A stretch of 64,000 nt of DNA from an uncultured Bacteroidota bacterium (GCA_963700635.1 CAVOYH010000004.1:416001-480000), one strand, 5' to 3'; positions 33,692 to 48,063 are shown, numbered from the stretch's first letter. Numbers and translations are program-made. The notes: generated by a model not told the origin, from the letters alone.

Positions 33692-35374
33692 ATGTCTCTG
33701 ACCGAAAAGACCGATTTTATACGCGATATCATCGCAGAAGATCTCCATTCCAACAAATATCAGGGGCGCGTCCATACGCGTTTTCCCCCGGAACCGAATG
33801 GATACCTTCATATCGGGCATGCGAAATCGATAAATCTAAACTACGGCATTGCCAGGGAGAATCCGGGCGGAATCTGCAACCTGCGCTTCGACGACACAAA
33901 TCCTGAAAAGGAAGAGCAGGAGTACGTGGATTCTATCATTGCCGATGTCCGCTGGATTGCCGGGCGTATTGACCCGAAGGTTCTCTATGCCTCGGACTAT
34001 TTCGAGCAGATGTATGCGTGGGCGATTGATCTCGTACAAAAAGGGAAGGCCTATGTGTGTGACCTGAACGCCGAAGAGATTCGCGAATCCCGCGGGACGC
34101 TGACGGAGCCCGGCACAGATAGTCCATACAGAACCCGCAGTGTCGAAGAAAATCTTGATCTGCTTTCACGTATGCGCAAAGGCGAATTCCCTGATGGCGC
34201 ACGAACCCTCCGGGCGAAGATCGACATGGCCTCACCGAATATCAATCTTCGCGACCCGATCATGTACCGGATCGTTCACGAGCACCATCACCGTCAGGGG
34301 AGCACGTGGTGCATCTATCCGACGTACGATTGGGCGCATGGACTTGAGGATTCCATCGAAGGTATAACTCACTCCATCTGTACTCTGGAATTCGAGAACC
34401 ACCGGCCTTTGTACGACTGGTTTCTGGACGCACTGGAGATCTACCATCCGCAGCAAATAGAATTTGCAAGGCTCAATCTCAGTTACACCGTGCTCAGTAA
34501 ACGCCGGCTCCTGGAGCTTGTCCAGGGGCACCACGTAACCGGTTGGGATGATCCGCGTATGCCGACCATCGCCGGGTATCGCCGCCGCGGATATACCGCC
34601 GAGGCCATCCGAACATTCTGCGAGAAGATTGGTGTATCAAAAAAGGACAGTATCATCGATGTGGCGCTGCTGGAGTGGAGTATCCGGGAAGATCTGAACA
34701 AGCATGCACAGCGGGTGATGGCCGTTCTTCATCCCCTCAAGGTTGTCATTACAAACTACCCGGAGGGAACCAGCGAAGAACTTCCGGCACTGAACAACCC
34801 GGAAGATGAGAGTGCCGGGACACGGCTCATACCGTTCTCCCGGGAAATGTACATTGACCATGACGACTTCCGCGAGGTTCCTCCCCCAAAATATCACCGA
34901 CTCTCTCCCGGTAAGGAGGTGCGACTGCGCGCCGCGTATATCATCAAGTGTGAAAACGTGGTAAAGGATGCGGCCGGAAAGATTGTTGAGCTGCACTGCA
35001 CGTACGATCCCGAGACGAAGAGCGGAGGTCCGGCGGCCAACCGGAAAGTGAAGGGCACAATACACTGGGTCTCCGCCCCGCACGCAGTCGATGGGGAGGT
35101 ACGCCTGTACGACCGTCTTTTTCTCAAGGAAGACCCCAATGAAGACGGGAGTTTTCTTTCAAACCTCAACCCTGATTCGCTGCAGATTCTGTCCGGATGC
35201 AAGCTGGAGCCCATGCTCGGATCAGCGGCGCCAGGAGAGAGATTTCAATTCGAACGTGTGGGATATTTCTGCGTGGATTCCGCACGGACCGATTCGGGGG
35301 CGCCCGTATTCAACCGCACAGTGACGCTCCGGGATACGTGGGCAAAGATTGCACAAAGGGGAGCGGGGGTCTAA
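33692..35374 (+). CDS. glnS: Glutaminyl-tRNA synthetase
   Basis: [76 protein letters not shown]. Confidence 0.98.
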
Positions 35375-36757
35375 CGCCGGTACCGCGAAATAAACTCCTC
35401 GACTTCCGGGATCCCTCCCTGAAAAATGAGATATCCGTTGCTCGGCTCACGATCGGTAATCTCCCCTGCAACAGGTGTCATCATGATCTCCCTCACCTTC
35501 TCGACAGGTCGTCTGCTTTGGCCGAGTGCCCATCCCAGTTTCATGTACGCGACCTCCGGGAGCATGTTGGCTCCCGGGATAACGCCCAGTTCCATCATGT
35601 CGCGCCCCGTGTCATAGACATACATCTGAACATACCCCCACAACGTCTGAACAGTCATGTACACGGCAATCCCCTTCTGATGGGCCTCTTCGTAAGGAGG
35701 GATAGAGGGGTTTGTTAACATGGCCGAGCCCCGTGCCCGCGATGACGATCCCCCGGTACCCGTTGTCAATCAACGACTCGATAATGTCCGGCTTCATATT
35801 CGGGTAGTAGTACACGATTGAGACTTTTTCCTCGAACGCCGTATTGACGACAACCCGGTGGTCATCCCGCCGCCTCCGGTAGTCCTGGCGAAGCGGGGTG
35901 ATACGGTCCCGGCTGACCATGGCGAGCGGAATATCGCCGATCGTACGAAACGTGGAACGGTAGCTGGAATGCATTTTGCGTACCCGGGTCCCGCGGTGCA
36001 GAAGACCGTACTCATCGGAGGTCGGACCAAACATGCACACCGTAATCTCCGCGATGTCACTTTCCGCGGCAGTTTTCACGCTGTGCATGAGATTCAATGC
36101 CGCATCCGAGGAAGGGCGATCACTCGAGCGTTGTGAGCCGACCATGACGACAGGGACCGGGGAATCCTGGATCATGAAGGAGAGGATGGCCGCCGTATGA
36201 TGCATGGTGTCCGTCCCGTGCCCGATAACAATACCCTGAACCCCTTTTTCGATCTCACGTCCGATGGCCTGTGCTGTACCGATCCATTGTTCAGGCCCCA
36301 TATTCTCACTGAAGACGCCATACAGTTTTTCTGTTTCCAGATTGCAGATGTCGGCGAGTTCCGGCACGGAACCATATAATTCACCGGGCGAAAAGGCGGG
36401 GATAACCGCACCGGTGCGGTAATCCAACCGGCTTGCTATGGTGCCGCCCGTCCCCAGGAGTTTTACGCGCGGTTTCTGCGGGTCGTACGGAAATTCCTTT
36501 TCGGGGATCTTATAGTGGGCCTCCTTGCGTCCGTGGACGCTGATCTGTTGAACACCGGACGCTGCGATGCCGACATTGTATCCGCTTCGGAGTTTCAAGA
36601 CGATGTGGTGGGGATCAGCAGTTTCTGATCTCGGGAGCACAATGCCGACAAATACACCGTTCGCCGTATGGATCTCCACATCGCTCCAGACCTGCGCGCC
36701 ATATGCCTTCAATGTCGAAAGCGCTTCCTCGCGATACCCTCTGAAATCGCCGTTCAT
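35371..36757 (-). CDS. gatD: Archaeal-type Glu-tRNA(Gln) amidotransferase subunit D (asparaginase-like), split by one extra base near 35687; 461 aa if repaired
   Basis: GatD N-terminal domain ([10 protein letters not shown]), [54 protein letters not shown]; after the shift VYDTGRDM and [18 protein letters not shown] overlap with gatE. Confidence 0.93.
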
Positions 36758-38670
36758 GTCCGGTTCTCCATAAGGAGTGCGACAATCAGTTCTGCGACCT
36801 GCGCGCCCTCGACCCTGCCTCGTAGCTTCTGCATCACGCATCCCATCAGGACTGTCGCCGTGTGCTCTGGGTGACGGATGTGTATGCCTGTTATGTGTTC
36901 TTTGCACGACGTGATGACCGAATCCAGCTCGTCACCCGTACATCTGCCCGGGAGTTGTTCCCTGGAAAATGCCCTGCCTTCGGCGATGCCACGGAGGGCG
37001 GGGAGTACACCTTCGCGGGTTAGCACGCCGTCTCTCAACGCACAGAGAAGCTCCTGCATCTGCTCGCGTGTAAATGTTTGGGGACGGCCCAGTGACCGTG
37101 TGACACGTTTGGGAAGCTGGATAAGAATGACGGCGACAGCCGTAGGCCGGAGTCGCCAAGCCGTGACGGCTTCGGCAAAGAGATCTGCGTAGTGTGAAAT
37201 GCTCAATGGACCCACACAATCTTCTGGAATGTGCAGCGAACGGTACCACTGTTCGCGTTCCCAGACCGGTTGGGGGACGTTTGCACGAATACGTGCGAGC
37301 CGTTCGGCCGAGATGCGCAGTGGCGGGAGATCCGTATCAGGGTACATCCGGTTAGGTCCGGGCAGGATACGTTCAAATCCGTTGGTACCATCCCGGAGCG
37401 CCTGCCTGGTTTCGGATGGGACGCCGTGGGTCGCCTCTTGCGCCCGGATGATGATCTCGGCCGCTCCGGCAGGTCCATCCTGTTTGCTGCCCCAGACGAG
37501 GACCAGTGCATCGTCTTCTGCCGCATTGAGTGTGCGTCGCACACTTTGCCATTCGGATGAGGCGAGTGTTTCGCTCGGACTGTCGGAGTGGATAATGTTG
37601 GGCAGTGTTGTAAGGCAGGCAACCACCCGAACACGATCGGAAATTTCCCTGGAGAAATATGTGTCAGTTTGTGTCTGCCACCGCAGGAGATCCCTGAAAC
37701 CAAAAAGCGCGACAGCGTAGACGAACTTGCCCCCCGCGATTGCGTCCCGTATGGGCTGGTAGAGGGTCCGCCGCAGAAGTTTGGTGACGTCTTCCGTGTG
37801 TGAGCGAAATGTTTCCGAGGTAATACCACGGCGGTGCAACTCGTCGCGAAGCCGGAGGAGCTGGACCTGACGCATGGCTTCATGATAGGTCAGAAGGGGG
37901 ATATCCGGGATACGCGGGACACCTTTGATTTCGATCCGCGTTCCGCCTGTCACGCTGACGTTTACGTCCTGTCGCGCGGCCCCGGCACCCGTGCGGACCT
38001 TTCCCGTACTCCGGACCAGCTGCCGGAGGATCTGCGCCACCTCGGCAACTTCAGCCGGCGTGTGCATGTCGGGGGCAGTGACGGTTTCAATCAGCGGCAT
38101 CCCGAGCCGGTCGGTAAGATACGTCCGCCGGTGGCCGACATCGCTGACCTCACGGCAGGCGTCCTCTTCGAGTCCAAGCTGGAGAATGCGGATATGCCGG
38201 TCCTTATAGGGTGTTGAGCCTTCCACCCCCACGATGGTGGTGCGTTGAAACCCGGTGGGGATACTGCCGTCGAGATATTGTTTCCGGGCAATGTGAATCT
38301 CATCAACCATCGTGCATCCGTACAGCATTGCTACTTCGAGGGCGATGTCCAGAGCCTCCGGGTTGAGCTCAAAAGGGGGGGTGTCGTCCATTTCATACGT
38401 GCACACCGTGTCGCGATGAATAAGATAAATGATCTCCTTCTTCGTCTTAAATTCCATCAGGGCCGTGCCGTCATATTCCCCCAATTCCGACAGCGTGGGC
38501 CGCATATGCCGCAAAATCTCCGCGTTACATTCATCGCTGTAGCGTCCGGATGGGCACCGGCAGAACAGCTTCTTTGATGTCAGGAGTTGCTGATGGATTT
38601 CCAGACCGGATTTGAAACCGATGGCCGCATAGTCTGCTTCGGTCATCTCGTGGAACGGCTTGAGAGTCAT
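36754..38670 (-). CDS. gatE: Archaeal-type Glu-tRNA(Gln) amidotransferase subunit E
   Basis: GLEIHQQL, KLFCRC, RPTLSELGEYD, DGSIPTGFQRT, LEEDACR, DRLGMPLIE, RQDVNVSV..G.RIEIKGV, GatE-specific GAD-like insertion (IIHSD...DDALVLVWG), LPGPNRMYPDTDLPP, MG..M..LRG tail. Confidence 0.95.
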   Translation of the reverse strand: MTLKPFHEMTEADYAAIGFKSGLEIHQQLLTSKKLFCRCPSGRYSDECNAEILRHMRPTLSELGEYDGTALMEFKTKKEIIYLIHRDTVCTYEMDDTPPFELNPEALDIALEVAMLYGCTMVDEIHIARKQYLDGSIPTGFQRTTIVGVEGSTPYKDRHIRILQLGLEEDACREVSDVGHRRTYLTDRLGMPLIETVTAPDMHTPAEVAEVAQILRQLVRSTGKVRTGAGAARQDVNVSVTGGTRIEIKGVPRIPDIPLLTYHEAMRQVQLLRLRDELHRRGITSETFRSHTEDVTKLLRRTLYQPIRDAIAGGKFVYAVALFGFRDLLRWQTQTDTYFSREISDRVRVVACLTTLPNIIHSDSPSETLASSEWQSVRRTLNAAEDDALVLVWGSKQDGPAGAAEIIIRAQEATHGVPSETRQALRDGTNGFERILPGPNRMYPDTDLPPLRISAERLARIRANVPQPVWEREQWYRSLHIPEDCVGPLSISHYADLFAEAVTAWRLRPTAVAVILIQLPKRVTRSLGRPQTFTREQMQELLCALRDGVLTREGVLPALRGIAEGRAFSREQLPGRCTGDELDSVITSCKEHITGIHIRHPEHTATVLMGCVMQKLRGRVEGAQVAELIVALLMENRT

Positions 38671-38819
38671 GGGGTGTTTGTCCAGGACAGGCGTAAGGAT
38701 ATTTTCTAAAGGTCCACAAACAAACCAGGAAATGCAACCTCCCCTTGCTAATGCTTCTTTTCGTCCCTAAGTTATTTTGATCCATCACTCATCCCCAGAC
38801 ACTTCGTTGAACCAAGTCC

Positions 38820-40719
38820 ATGACACCCAACGCGCTCACTGCACTTCTTGAGAATATCCGGCACGCCAGAATCGGGATACTCGGCGATTTTTTTCTGGAC
38901 GTGTACCTTCTCCTTGATCCGGCAGCATCCGAAGTATCCGTTGAGACCGGCCTTGCCACGCGGGCAGTTCGGAGTCAGCGGTACTTCCTCGGCGGGGCAG
39001 GAAATGTCGCCAGCAACCTGCTGGCCATGGGAGCGGGGCAGCTGTCTGTCTTCGGCGTCATCGGCCGCGACCCCTTCGGCGCAGAAATGCAGAGTATGAT
39101 GTCGGAGCAGGGTGTCAAGACGGACGGTCTCCTTGTCCAGCGGGAGACCTGGGACACCCACGTGTACACAAAGCCACACGAACGGGAGCATGAGCAGCAC
39201 CGGATTGACTTTGGTAACTTTAACCAGTTGCAGGCCTCGACCGGTCGCCAGCTTCTCGAGCTTCTCGAAAACGCTCTGCCTACGCTTGACCTCGTCGTTA
39301 TCAATCAGCAGGCTATCCGTGGACTTCACTCCGCCGAATTTCGCCAGGGATTGACCGAGCTTATACAGCGGCATCCGGAATTCCGGTTTATCGTGGACTC
39401 GCGCCATTACTCCGATGTGTACGCCGGAGCGATGCGCAAGGTGAATGTTCTCGAAGCGTCCCGGTTGTCCCGGGTGCAGGCGGCAAGGGGCGACTCCCCG
39501 GATGGATCCTCCATTGAGACACTTGCGCGGGAGCTGTTTGAGCGCTGGGGAAAACCGCTTTTCCTGACGCGGGGCGAACACGGGTGCAGCGTCTGTGACG
39601 ATTCAGGATATAGAGAGATACCGGGTCTGCTTATACTGTCGCCAGTGGATCCCGTGGGTGCCGGAGACAGCATGCTCGCCGGGATCGCTGCAGCCCTGGC
39701 GACGGGGGCAGAACCGTACACAGCAGCCGAACTCGGCGACACTCGTGGCAGGCGTGACGGTCCAGAAGTTGATGCAGACGGGCACCGCATCGCCCGAGGA
39801 AATCCTCAAGTTAGGCACCGATCCTGATTTCCGTTACAAACCCGATCTGGCCCGGCAGCCTCGCAAGGCAACGTACCGGCCCGGTACCAACATCGAGATT
39901 GTCTCGATTCTTCCGGAACGCCGTCGGTTTACGCATGTCATCTTCGATCACGATGGGACACTGTCGACGTTGCGGCAGGGGTGGGAAGATATCATGGAAC
40001 CCATGATGACCCGGGCTATTCTTGGAGACAAGGCACACGACGTGGATGAGACACTCTACAACGAAGTTCGAAGTGCCGTCAGAGATTTTATTGATAAAAC
40101 AACGGGTATCCAGACTCTGGTCCAGATGCGGGGGCTCATCAATCTTGTGCGGCGCTTCAGGTGTGTTCCGGAAGGTTCCATTCTGGACGAGGCAGGGTAC
40201 AAGAGCATCTACAACGAGGAGCTTCTCGGCATGGTCAATGGCCGGATTACGCAGCTAGCGAAGGGAGAGCTGGATGTCGAGGATTTCACTATCAAGAACG
40301 CCGGAGCGTTGCTTCGCGAGCTTTCTTTGCGGGATGTTGAACTGTATCTCGCCAGCGGCACGGACCACGATGATGTTGTACGTGAGACAGAGATGCTGGG
40401 ATATCGAAACCTGTTCGGCGGCAGGATCTATGGTGCAGTCGGGGATGTGACGAAAGAAGCAAAACGTATGGTGCTTGAACGGATCATGAACGATATCGGG
40501 GATGCAGCGCACGAACGCATTCTGACATTCGGGGACGGTCCGGTCGAGGTTCGTGAGACCCACAAACGCGGCGGGTATGCGGTTGGTGTGGCGAGTAATG
40601 AGATCCGGCGTTACGGACAGGATCTACAGAAGCGGCGAAGACTCATCGAGGCTGGTGCCGATCTGATCATTCCGGATTTCTGTCAATTGGATTCGCTCGT
40701 CCAACTTCTGTTCCCGTGA
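38820..40719 (+). CDS. Fused PfkB/RfaE-like sugar kinase and HAD hydrolase, split by one extra base near 39738; about 632 aa if repaired
   Basis: GDFFLDVY, GGAGNVA.NL, TRGEHG, DPVGAGDS; after repair AAELGTLVAGVTVQKL..TGTA; HAD motifs FDHDGTLS, LASGT, K, FGDGPVE. Confidence 0.82.
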
Positions 40720-46169: not shown

Positions 46170-47948
46170 TTATTTCATCAGGACCATCGTCCGCGTCTGC
46201 ATGAACCCGGCTGCCTGAAGGCGGTAGAGGTACACTCCGCTTGCACGTGTTGAGGCGTCAAACGTCAGCGTGTGTGGGCCCGCATCCTTCTGCCCGTCCA
46301 GCAACGTTACAACTTCCCGCCCCAGGAGATCGTACACGCTCAGCTTCACGGGCCCGCTCTGGCCCAGATGGAACGCGATCGTTGTGGACGGATTAAACGG
46401 ATTCGGATAATTTTGATTGAGAGCGTATGTTCCCGGCACCACCTCAGCATCCGGGACATCAAGCGCGAGGTCGACCGCATCAAAGTATACATCCTGAGGT
46501 CCATACCCGACATACGCGACATTTCCCCTGTACGAAGTCCCGCCCAGATCACGGTCATGACCGACTACCGGAATAACGGTTCCTGTAGGCCTGAATTGGC
46601 TCACGGCCCGGGGCGTCGCGGAATACAACCCGGAAAGTTTGTCCATTACAGCTTTATAGTAAATAACGTCGGAGCCCTCGCTGGACCGGTATGCAGTTCG
46701 CCAGTAGTATCCGGCTGCCCATGGAGCATAGGCTACGGAGGTCAATTCTTCGTTGTCCGTTGACGTTGCGATACTGTCACGCGTGAAGGTCCTGAAAAGG
46801 TCCGTGGAGTACAGGTACATTGCATCGTTATATGTTGGCGCGCCGGTGGCCCGCGTGTAGGTGATCATCGCATTACCCCTGACCGGATCAATAGCCAGCG
46901 ATGGGTCAAAGTCGTCCTTCGGGGTACTGGGGTACGAAATGGTCCATGAAGCTGGGAATGTAAAAGAGTTGCGTGCAACCCTGATCGATCTGGATGGAGC
47001 GGCAAAGCGTGTGAACGCGACAACCAGGCTGTCGGGAGATGTGCTCCAGTCGATTGCGATTGTGGGAGTAGCCTCCTGAAATCCTCTTACCGTGGTATCG
47101 GGCGTTAGCCAGTTTTTCCCCCAGTTGGTCGTCCGTGTGATCAATAACCCCCGTGACAGATCGGTCGACGGGGTAATGTACTCTGTGGCAATGTAGTGAT
47201 ATGTCATCGACGGCGTGAACAGTGTTCCATCGGTGCAGATGCTGGGATTGCGGTAGTTGGTCGACGCATCTGCGGCGTCAATAAGGGTGTATCTCCAATT
47301 TGACCCATTGCTCAACATGCTTCCCCAGTAGAGATGTCCGCCACCGTTACTACTGAGATCACTCTTGGTTATAAAGACAAAACCCAGCAGCCATGTTCCT
47401 GCAGATGAGTCAGTCACGCACATATCGAATGATTGGATGGCTCGCCCCGCAGACATGAATCCGCCGACGTAACTCCAGGTGCGCCCGCCGGTCGTGGAGC
47501 GATAGGCCCTGAGGATCGAGAGCGTGTCCTGATATCGTGAATTGATGGCAAGAAATATTCCTCCAAGCGTGTCAACATCAAGTGCGAGCTGGCGTCTGCC
47601 GTGGGAGTACATCGGACCCGTGTAGACTTTGACATCATCTCCCCAGAGAGGCCCGGCAGCTGCATCAAATGTGTCATCCCGGTTGTCCTGGTACACCGGT
47701 GGCGCCGCGTCCGGGGGGAGTGATGGCAGGGTCTGGCAGATATCCCGCTCCAGTTCACGAACCCGGGTGATGTCTCCGGCTTTACGCGCCAGCGACAACT
47801 CCTTTGTCAGCCGGTGCAGGTTGTCAGATGCAGGTACTGCTGATGTAGCTTGATCACTGCGCAGTTCCTCATGAGTCTGCGGTGCGGCATATGCTCCGCA
47901 TAGCGCCACGCAAACCAGAAACACGACGACCAAGCGTAACCGTGTCAT
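46170..47948 (-). CDS. T9SS type A sorting domain-containing secreted protein with BNR/Asp-box-like repeats
   Basis: Signal peptide; STTGGRTW, TTNWGKNW, STDLFRTF; C-terminal LNQNYPNPFNPSTTI...SGVYLYRL...MVLMK. Confidence 0.85.
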   Translation of the reverse strand: MTRLRLVVVFLVCVALCGAYAAPQTHEELRSDQATSAVPASDNLHRLTKELSLARKAGDITRVRELERDICQTLPSLPPDAAPPVYQDNRDDTFDAAAGPLWGDDVKVYTGPMYSHGRRQLALDVDTLGGIFLAINSRYQDTLSILRAYRSTTGGRTWSYVGGFMSAGRAIQSFDMCVTDSSAGTWLLGFVFITKSDLSSNGGGHLYWGSMLSNGSNWRYTLIDAADASTNYRNPSICTDGTLFTPSMTYHYIATEYITPSTDLSRGLLITRTTNWGKNWLTPDTTVRGFQEATPTIAIDWSTSPDSLVVAFTRFAAPSRSIRVARNSFTFPASWTISYPSTPKDDFDPSLAIDPVRGNAMITYTRATGAPTYNDAMYLYSTDLFRTFTRDSIATSTDNEELTSVAYAPWAAGYYWRTAYRSSEGSDVIYYKAVMDKLSGLYSATPRAVSQFRPTGTVIPVVGHDRDLGGTSYRGNVAYVGYGPQDVYFDAVDLALDVPDAEVVPGTYALNQNYPNPFNPSTTIAFHLGQSGPVKLSVYDLLGREVVTLLDGQKDAGPHTLTFDASTRASGVYLYRLQAAGFMQTRTMVLMK

Positions 47949-48043
47949 AGGGGAATCCTCCGAATGGTGTGGTAAAAGCGTGGAGAAGGAGTCGTTCGAA
48001 ATGCTTCTCATGTATATAGTACGCAAGCGAACGCAAGTGAAAC

Positions 48044-48063
48044 AATACCGCATTCGCGGTATT
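48044..48063. promoter_or_regulatory. 8-4-8 inverted repeat, candidate response-regulator binding site
   Basis: AATACCGC-ATTC-GCGGTATT lies just upstream of a weak -35 and a TACTAT -10 (48021-48016) for the T9SS gene. Confidence 0.5.

Follow-up and report, generated by a model that had tools for sequence, protein, structure and literature searches.

A bacterial-type GatE–GatD amidotransferase pair encoded beside glutaminyl-tRNA synthetase in an uncultured member of the Bacteroidota

We analysed a gene pair, gatE–gatD, which encodes the two subunits of the tRNA-dependent amidotransferase GatDE and lies tail to tail with a complete glnS gene for glutaminyl-tRNA synthetase (GlnRS) in an uncultured Bacteroidota bacterium (GCA_963700635.1). 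The window, i.e. the whole stretch of 64,000 nucleotides that was analysed (CAVOYH010000004.1:416001-480000), is the 416-480 kb section of a 1.02-Mb contig; the genome measures 4.2 Mb in six contigs and has a completeness of 97% with 6.7% contamination. The features of the locus are given in Table 1. The gatE stop codon and the gatD start codon overlap as ATGA (coding strand '...cgg aca TGA' and 'ATG aac ggc' within 'acATGAac'), and the glnS stop codon TAA (35372-35374) overlaps the gatD stop codon TAG (35373-35371) of the opposite strand at 35371-35374. An initial annotation of this DNA had described both the coupling and the overlapping stop codons, and reading of the two strands confirmed them. 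The span it gave for gatD, 35371-36757 (minus strand, 1387 nt), is also correct. The gene is not a single open frame, however: one surplus base divides it into two overlapping open reading frames (ORFs), 35612-36907 (frame a) and 35371-35769 (frame b), a frameshift to which the initial annotation referred only among its refuting conditions.

Table 1. Coordinates of the glnS–gatD–gatE locus, counted from the first nucleotide of the window
Feature	Position	Strand	Description
glnS	33692-35374	+	Complete GlnRS, 560 aa; TIGR00440 716 bits (cut-off 426) and three Pfam class Ic synthetase domains; convergent with gatD
gatE	36754-38670	-	Intact, 638 aa; kinase/transamidase and tRNA-binding subunit; NF003107 and TIGR00134 above cut-off; PDB alignments
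gatD before shift	35693-36757	-	355 codons; GatD_N, asparaginase N domain with [17 protein letters not shown] and RKMH motifs, start of C domain
Surplus base in gatD	about 35692	-	C on coding strand, 'cctta[c]gaag'; DNA alignment with 10 relatives
gatD after shift	35371-35691	-	106 codons and stop; remainder of asparaginase C domain; PF17763
Divergent intergenic region upstream of gatE	38671-38819		149 bp, between gatE start and divergent pfkB/HAD gene; presumed promoter region

Judged by its sequence, gatE–gatD is a true GatDE pair, every structural mark of membership being found apart from a continuous gatD frame, which this assembly lacks. GatE scored 538.2 bits on NF003107 (cut-off 456) and 450.3 bits on TIGR00134 (cut-off 319.55), compared with 59-141 bits on GatB models (cut-offs 315-680; best 140.9 against 338). 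With the first gatD piece alone, each of the two GatD models gave 406 bits (cut-offs 310 and 324) over profile positions 1-329 of 405, and the second piece covered positions 318-403 of 405 with 92-94 bits. The first piece also exceeded the cut-off of the type I asparaginase model TIGR00519 (288 bits, cut-off 260.5), as expected because GatD contains an asparaginase domain, and remained below that of type II asparaginase (143 bits, cut-off 314). Pfam recognised GatD_N (PF18195, 52.8 bits), PF00710 and PF17763 in GatD. In GatE, the catalytic GatB_N domain PF02934 extends over residues 21-457, that is 437 residues on 273 profile positions, and thus includes an insertion of about 160 amino acids. 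Moreover, residues 12-634 align continuously with P. abyssi GatE (1ZQ1_C), taking in the insertion resembling aspartyl-tRNA synthetase (AspRS) and the YqeY-like tail; PF02637 alone was sub-threshold on this C-terminal tail (22.3 bits, cut-off 27). End-to-end alignments of GatE had E values of 5e-101 (1ZQ1_C) and 2e-93 (2D6F_C), and the first 381 residues of GatD matched the solved archaeal GatD proteins with E 9e-96 (2D6F_A) and 9e-94. Accordingly, the initial annotation was right to call these proteins GatE and GatD rather than GatB and the asparaginase AnsA, to assign a GatE-specific insertion to the one and an N-terminal domain with its motifs to the other, and to see a complete GlnRS next to them.

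The catalytic residues are conserved as well. The GatD translation contains the motifs TGGT, HGTDT and SSDRPSSD, and TGGT, HGTDT and RKMH align with the same motifs of 2D6F_A; we take these three to hold the asparaginase-type catalytic Thr and the Thr-Lys-Asp triad. In an alignment of 32 GatE sequences, H26, E168/E169 and E195 are invariant. Shifted by the 11 residues that separate the two numberings in the match to 2D6F_C (query residue 13 equals chain residue 2), H26, E168 and E195 would correspond to His15, Glu157 and Glu184 of M. thermautotrophicus GatE, described as Mg2+-binding residues of the kinase site (PMC2330236).

The pair is native to a stable bacterial lineage. The closest GatE proteins are 68-79% identical, and wherever a source is named among the 120 matches listed they derive from metagenome-assembled genomes (MAGs) of Ignavibacteriae, Ignavibacteriales or Bacteroidota; the closest bacterial homologs are already annotated as GatE in databases. 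These source names suggest that the host belongs to the class Ignavibacteria (Bacteroidota). GatE is present in all five other species of the genus, in 15 of 36 genomes of the family and in 1 of 24 genomes from other families of the order. A sample of the phylum contained GatE in 16 of 401 genomes, all 16 from the same class, and in none of the 87, 61 and 28 genomes of its three largest other families. Three single-contig genomes of the class (G148, G384 and G400) have GatE. The order glnS-gatD-gatE-pfkB/HAD is common to the genus members G001, G003 and G005, and GC content stays uniform through the locus and resembles that of the flanks. As the initial annotation had stated, the flanking genes are plainly bacterial, comprising those for a PAS histidine kinase, PntB, a C69 peptidase and a protein with a Por_Secre_tail, the C-terminal sorting domain of the type IX secretion system. 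The last of these (46170-48053, minus strand, 627 aa) fits a host from the Bacteroidota or the wider Fibrobacteres–Chlorobi–Bacteroidetes group. Furthermore, the proportion of nonsynonymous differences (pN) was 0.05-0.21 over gatE and both parts of gatD, with saturated synonymous differences (pS), the mark of purifying selection.

Beyond this class, a scan of one genome per species gave at least 600 matches. The best 80 loci were taken, from which 73 GatE proteins were readable. By record title 69 of these are bacterial and represent at least 15 phyla, including Bacteroidota, Ignavibacteriota, Planctomycetota, Gemmatimonadota, Acidobacteriota, Aminicenantota, Calditrichota, Cloacimonadota, Krumholzibacteriota, Fermentibacterota, Zixiibacteriota, Myxococcota, Coatesiibacteriota and others; some titles ('Eubacteriales', 'Rickettsiales', 'Hyphomicrobiales') look doubtful. 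Three of the remaining records are unplaced. The other, a MAG titled Thermoplasmata archaeon (L110, CBDVER010000015.1), is alone among the best 80 loci in bearing an archaeal title. Its GatE falls into the bacterial-type clade; the record represents either a mis-binned contig or a transfer from a bacterium to an archaeon. Across the 80 loci, gatE formed a cluster in 70 and gatD in 56, the shortfall of gatD including contig ends and ORF picking, and no neighbour recurred beyond these two genes. A third cluster, seen in 11 loci, probably reflects an ORF that runs antisense within gatD.

In a library clustered at 50% identity, 665 clusters match GatE at E<=1e-30, and identity drops in a step from 40-58%, the range between the window GatE and other bacterial-type clusters, to the 32-39% it shares with archaeal-type cluster representatives. 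A FastTree phylogeny of 182 rows united the window GatE, all 67 named bacterial rows, the 'Thermoplasmata' row, the three unplaced and 32 unnamed rows in one clade with a support of 99. Its sister is a cluster with a Heimdallarchaeota protein, followed by a Thorarchaeota group; the nearest archaeal GatE sequences are therefore those of Asgard archaea. Consistent with this tree, IQ-TREE with a site-heterogeneous mixture model (48 rows) separated bacterial-type from archaeal-type GatE by a branch of length 0.40 with 100 in the Shimodaira-Hasegawa-like approximate likelihood ratio test (SH-aLRT). FastTree places the root inside the archaea, IQ-TREE on the bacterial side without support, and the GatB outgroup branch is very long (4.4). 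Because the two methods disagree on the root and the outgroup is so distant, we claim no donor. Thus, the separate bacterial branch proposed in the initial annotation stands, whereas the old inter-domain transfer it had considered, and the direction of such a transfer, are not established by these conflicting roots.

What the enzyme does has to be judged against the other charging systems of the host. Apart from GlnRS, the genome encodes an asparaginyl-tRNA synthetase (AsnRS, on contig C2), one bacterial glutamyl-tRNA synthetase (GluRS), one bacterial AspRS, GatB, GatC and two GatA paralogs. AsnB had no match at E<=1e-30 in this genome, and AsnA was not found in the genome search either. With GlnRS, AsnRS, GatCAB and single GluRS and AspRS enzymes at hand, GatDE is an extra, accessory enzyme. 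GatCAB is plausibly kept for tRNA-dependent asparagine synthesis, by analogy to Thermus and Deinococcus; as it covers this pathway, GatDE would be left without an obligatory job. The earlier view that GlnRS makes the transamidation route unnecessary is therefore upheld, the route being formally redundant, and the idea that GatDE replaces GatCAB and AsnRS does not fit this genome, which encodes both. The two GatA paralogs (C4:112073-113464 and C3:1919584-1920966) are both above cut-off (634 and 614 bits), with a tRNA-Glu(CUC)/tRNA-Gln(CUG) pair at a distance of about 5-6 kb from each. GatB and GatC were each found once.

All four tRNA(Gln) genes begin with U1-A72. ARAGORN predicted 47 tRNA genes, none of them for asparagine despite the presence of AsnRS, and a pattern search for a GUU anticodon loop and T-loop gave nothing tRNA-like; the tRNA(Asn) gene probably lies in an assembly gap or is damaged by an indel. 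The GluRS carries an arginine at the position of Arg358 of T. thermophilus GluRS, whose exchange for glutamine was reported to render the enzyme non-discriminating (PMC2978374). We rejected this residue as a marker of discriminating and non-discriminating GluRS, because arginine occupies the position in 51 of 51 enzymes examined, including those of ten genomes without GlnRS that must mischarge, and is thus uninformative in this lineage. Ten of the 61 related genomes that we compared were dropped here, their GluRS match being absent or partial (G004, G008, G018, G023, G027, G035, G038, G043, G054 and G055).

Co-occurrence was followed in these 61 relatives and in five GatE-bearing genomes of other phyla. 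GatE is present in 17 relatives, 16 of which also have GlnRS, the exception being 79% complete. Conversely, 13 of the 14 genomes without GlnRS also lack GatE, the fourteenth being G035; 13 of these 14, including G035, have GatB, and G055, which is 66% complete, shows only partial GatB matches. Six relatives lack GatB, among them G028 and G037, both 100% complete, which have GatE, GlnRS, AsnRS and AsnB. The genomes of other phyla contain GlnRS in four, GatB in two and AsnRS in all five cases. GatDE is the only amidotransferase in five genomes (G028, G037, G449, G450 and G452). No GatE-positive genome lacks both GlnRS and GatB (0 of 17 relatives, 0 of 5 from other phyla), and GatDE is the sole conceivable route to Gln-tRNA or Asn-tRNA in no genome examined. 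The association between GatE and GlnRS is without statistical support, as only four phylogenetically independent pairs are available, of which one to three point in the same direction and none in the opposite one (FastTree of GluRS, 51 of the 61 genomes). A correlation of GatE with the absence of AsnB or AsnRS was not visible across the relatives.

The adjacency of glnS and gatD occurs in G001, G002, G003, G005 and G033 only; six further GatE-positive relatives (G016, G018, G024, G028, G032 and G037) have glnS beside the GluRS gene gltX. The synteny that the initial annotation had considered thus holds for a few genomes and not for the others, and we read it as lineage-specific and not as functional coupling. 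Of the 47 relatives with a GlnRS match, 26 have gltX immediately adjacent to glnS, as read from the coordinates, and asnS often lies within a few kb of them. Within the genus of the window, glnS has parted from gltX and asnS, which remain together at C2:210744-217553, and lies tail to tail with gatD.

The best explanation overall, to which we assign a probability of about 0.6, is a native two-gene gatE–gatD operon of the bacterial GatDE branch that encodes an accessory tRNA-dependent amidotransferase acting on Glu-tRNA(Gln), the frameshift in gatD being an artefact. By homology, GatE would bind the mischarged aminoacyl-tRNA and phosphorylate the side-chain carboxylate, GatD would release ammonia from glutamine or asparagine, and GatE would then amidate the activated intermediate. 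The substrate would still be Glu-tRNA(Gln), here of the bacterial U1-A72 type, and the enzyme might provide a second route to Gln-tRNA(Gln) as well as a sink for Glu-tRNA(Gln) produced by a GluRS that is not fully discriminating. Taken alone, this activity as a parallel route and sink is tentative and falls a little short of even odds. Family membership, conservation of the catalytic residues, purifying selection, presence throughout the lineage and redundancy are shown directly by the sequences, whereas the substrate, the activity and the artefactual origin of the frameshift are deduced.

Several points weigh against this explanation. GatDE of M. thermautotrophicus is reported to recognise the A1-U72 pair of archaeal tRNA(Gln) (PMC2330236). 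As tRNA(Gln) of the host begins with U1-A72, recognition must differ from that of the solved enzyme. The arginine in GluRS alone would argue that no Glu-tRNA(Gln) is made, but this marker fails to discriminate within the lineage (Arg in 51/51). Three complete relatives (G045, G048 and G053) have GlnRS and neither GatB nor GatE, showing that an amidotransferase is not needed for clearing. Finally, the surplus base in gatD lies outside any homopolymer, and a real recent mutation of gatD, improbable as it is, would count on the same side.

Alternatively, bacterial GatDE might be an Asp-tRNA(Asn) amidotransferase that serves tRNA-dependent asparagine formation alongside or instead of GatCAB, a role we regard as unlikely. 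A glutamine role seems least needed where GlnRS accompanies GatE, as it does in 16 of 17 relatives and in four of the five genomes from other phyla, and GatDE is the only amidotransferase in the five genomes named above. Since neither AsnA nor AsnB was found here, asparagine should be made on tRNA or imported. Moreover, bacterial tRNA(Asn) and tRNA(Gln) are both described as beginning with U1-A72 (PMC2330236), so that a GatE adapted to this pair could take either. However, the complete GatCAB of this genome already explains tRNA-dependent asparagine synthesis. The GatB-less, GatE-positive genomes G028 and G037 have AsnRS and AsnB and thus do not need an Asp-tRNA(Asn) amidotransferase, and AsnRS is present in all five GatE genomes of other phyla. 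Archaeal GatDE was reported to reject Asp-tRNA(Asn) (PMC2330236), and no tRNA(Asn) gene was found in the assembly to inspect.

The second component of the preferred explanation, that the gatD frameshift is an assembly error, is very probable. In a DNA alignment with gatD of ten relatives, the surplus C at about 35692 forms a column unique to the window, whose gatD also has one extra in-frame codon beyond the surplus base; the gene is intact in all ten relatives, as an open gene of 1383 nt. Similar breaks occur elsewhere in the assembly. Comparison of 129 ORFs from the loci of 12 relatives with this genome gave 55 matches at >=55% identity, 36 of them in one piece over >90% of the length, 10 partial without a second piece and 9 split. 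The nine split queries belong to just two genes: gatD and the divergent neighbour of gatE. The latter, a pfkB kinase/HAD fusion (38820-40719, plus strand), falls into ORFs 38820-39827 and 39595-40719 through a surplus C near 39737 and is a single ORF of 632-666 aa in G001, G003 and G005. In reciprocal comparisons of contigs C3 and C6, each serving once as reference, splits affect 9 of 100 and 6 of 90 comparable genes (about 7-9%); of ten inspected, seven show an isolated gap of one base within an otherwise good alignment and three are ambiguous. Even the essential hisS gene is divided between two frames (C4:209779-210702 and 210665-211057), while it is whole in G001, G002 and G037. No cell can do without a gene for histidyl-tRNA synthetase.

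Compared with three genus members, pN is 0.046-0.087 for the 106 codons after the shift and 0.082-0.098 for the 355 codons before it (pS saturated at 0.68-0.85). The case for an assembly error thus stands on the breakage of hisS and 7-9% of comparable genes, the intact relatives and the conserved codons behind the shift. The assembly is probably indel-rich and of long-read origin, and as the frameshift is likely an error of such a long-read-like assembly, the organism probably makes an intact GatD of 460 aa. Among sequencing runs, a search matched three DNA runs, which contained 0.05-0.07 of the words, and no RNA run; no read piece in the three lay over 35692, the nearest being a 56-nt piece of low likeness at 35703-35758. 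Given hisS and the 15 genes split between C3 and C6, frameshifts in this genome are readable as pseudogenes only with the help of reads.

If the frameshift were real, GatDE of this strain would just have been inactivated and a redundant system would be starting to decay, which we consider improbable. The position of the surplus base outside a homopolymer and the redundancy of GatDE in this genome are compatible with decay, as is the patchy occurrence of GatE, which requires at least seven state changes (gains or losses) on the GluRS tree of 51 genomes and extends to only 15 of 36 genomes of the family. Against this stand the breaks in hisS and other genes of the same assembly, the same +1 C in the neighbour of gatE, the 106 codons after the shift, as conserved as the earlier ones, and the fully open gatE. 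The decaying relic that the initial annotation had held out as the contrary outcome is thus not what the locus looks like.

Less probable still is a role outside bulk translation, in which GatDE would amidate another carboxylate-bearing aminoacyl-tRNA or a tRNA-like substrate, or would form an asparagine-fuelled, regulated backup under glutamine scarcity. Such a role would suit the lack of any examined GatE-positive genome without both GlnRS and GatB, the strong purifying selection that nevertheless holds, and the long branch between bacterial-type and archaeal-type GatE (SH-aLRT 100, length 0.40). Yet every catalytic and domain feature known from the canonical enzyme is retained, no conserved partner gene among the 80 loci points elsewhere, and no RNA element was found upstream of gatE. 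There, an Rfam search (38671-38819) gave no family at E<=1, and the RNA leader search gave no match of note, with one sR55 match of 19 bits (E 0.37). The same region contains no sigma-70-like site, and sigma-70-like and terminator-like sites overall were at chance level.

That bacterial GatDE does not substitute for the glutamine pathway and instead has a distinct substrate or role, be it Asp-tRNA(Asn), an asparagine-fuelled backup or a non-translational aminoacyl-tRNA, is doubtful. It may hold because, in the genomes examined, the pair is kept under selection only where GlnRS or GatCAB already make Gln-tRNA(Gln). In that event, GatDE would be an old family of both domains and not an archaeal invention.

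Although the bin has an estimated contamination of 6.7% and contig C6 looks like a second, related organism, a chimera in which archaeal DNA was misjoined to a bacterial contig is excluded for practical purposes, since the locus lies 450 kb inside its contig with bacterial genes on both sides, its gene order recurs in three other genomes of the genus and its closest source-named homologs among the matches listed are bacterial MAG proteins. Contig C6 itself (182 kb) is collinear with C3:1,643,000-1,809,000 at about 78% nucleotide identity (range about 76-82%), and its first 1.96 kb are 98.5% identical to the start of C4 in reversed orientation. It probably comes from another, related organism and gives rise to the contamination estimate.

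Reviews from 2008 and 2020 treat GatDE as an archaeal signature (PMC2330236; PMC7373986), and one from 2022 places it 'exclusively in archaea' (PMC8762117). The initial annotation had repeated this textbook view, which concerns the known distribution rather than the structure of the enzyme and which the bacterial host contradicts. Literature searches on GatDE in bacteria, made without supplementary files and for many papers by title or abstract, found no paper discussing bacterial GatDE. Here GatDE is a conserved pair under selection in a bacterial class. By record titles of the best 80 of at least 600 matches, it occurs in at least 15 bacterial phyla, and all GatE-bearing genomes examined also have GlnRS or GatCAB. 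To this picture the window adds the inventory of aminoacyl-tRNA synthetases and amidotransferases of a near-complete genome, the co-occurrence tables and a negative control for the GluRS marker, as well as the conflicting rooting and the signature of an assembly artefact in the gatD break. The purpose of a third layer of glutamine and asparagine charging, the recognition of U1-A72 tRNAs by GatE, and whether GatDE is an archaeal invention or older than the split of the domains thereby become testable. For annotation, the lesson is not to mistake a frameshift of this assembly for gene decay.

Compared with archaeal GatDE (P. abyssi 1ZQ1; M. thermautotrophicus 2D6F, solved with tRNA(Gln)), the bacterial pair agrees in its two subunits and in the order of their domains, among them GatD_N, the GatE insertion and the YqeY-like tail, and conserves the Mg-site residues and the asparaginase-type motifs. 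It differs in being 32-39% identical to the archaeal type and on the bacterial side of a 100-supported split, in a host whose tRNA(Gln) has U1-A72 instead of A1-U72 and which also possesses GlnRS, an enzyme that archaea lack according to the reviews consulted (PMC3439900; PMC2330236). The type I L-asparaginase AnsA shares the asparaginase fold of the GatD core (PF00710, PF17763; 288 bits on TIGR00519). GatD is set apart from it by GatD_N, the higher score of 406 bits on GatD models and the translational coupling to gatE. Bacterial GatCAB performs the same chemistry and is present in the same genome, and GatE is described as a paralog of GatB (PMC2330236). In contrast to GatCAB, the glutaminase of GatDE is the asparaginase-type GatD and not the amidase-type GatA, GatC is not needed, and GatE reaches only 59-141 bits on GatB models with cut-offs of 315-680. 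In Thermus thermophilus, Deinococcus radiodurans and Bdellovibrio bacteriovorus, GatCAB is redundant beside GlnRS and AsnRS, much as GatDE is here, and the amidotransferase of these species has been explained by tRNA-dependent asparagine synthesis (PMC4206432). Like them, the present genome is without AsnA and AsnB, none having been found; unlike them, it carries GatDE as a third layer on top of GatCAB.

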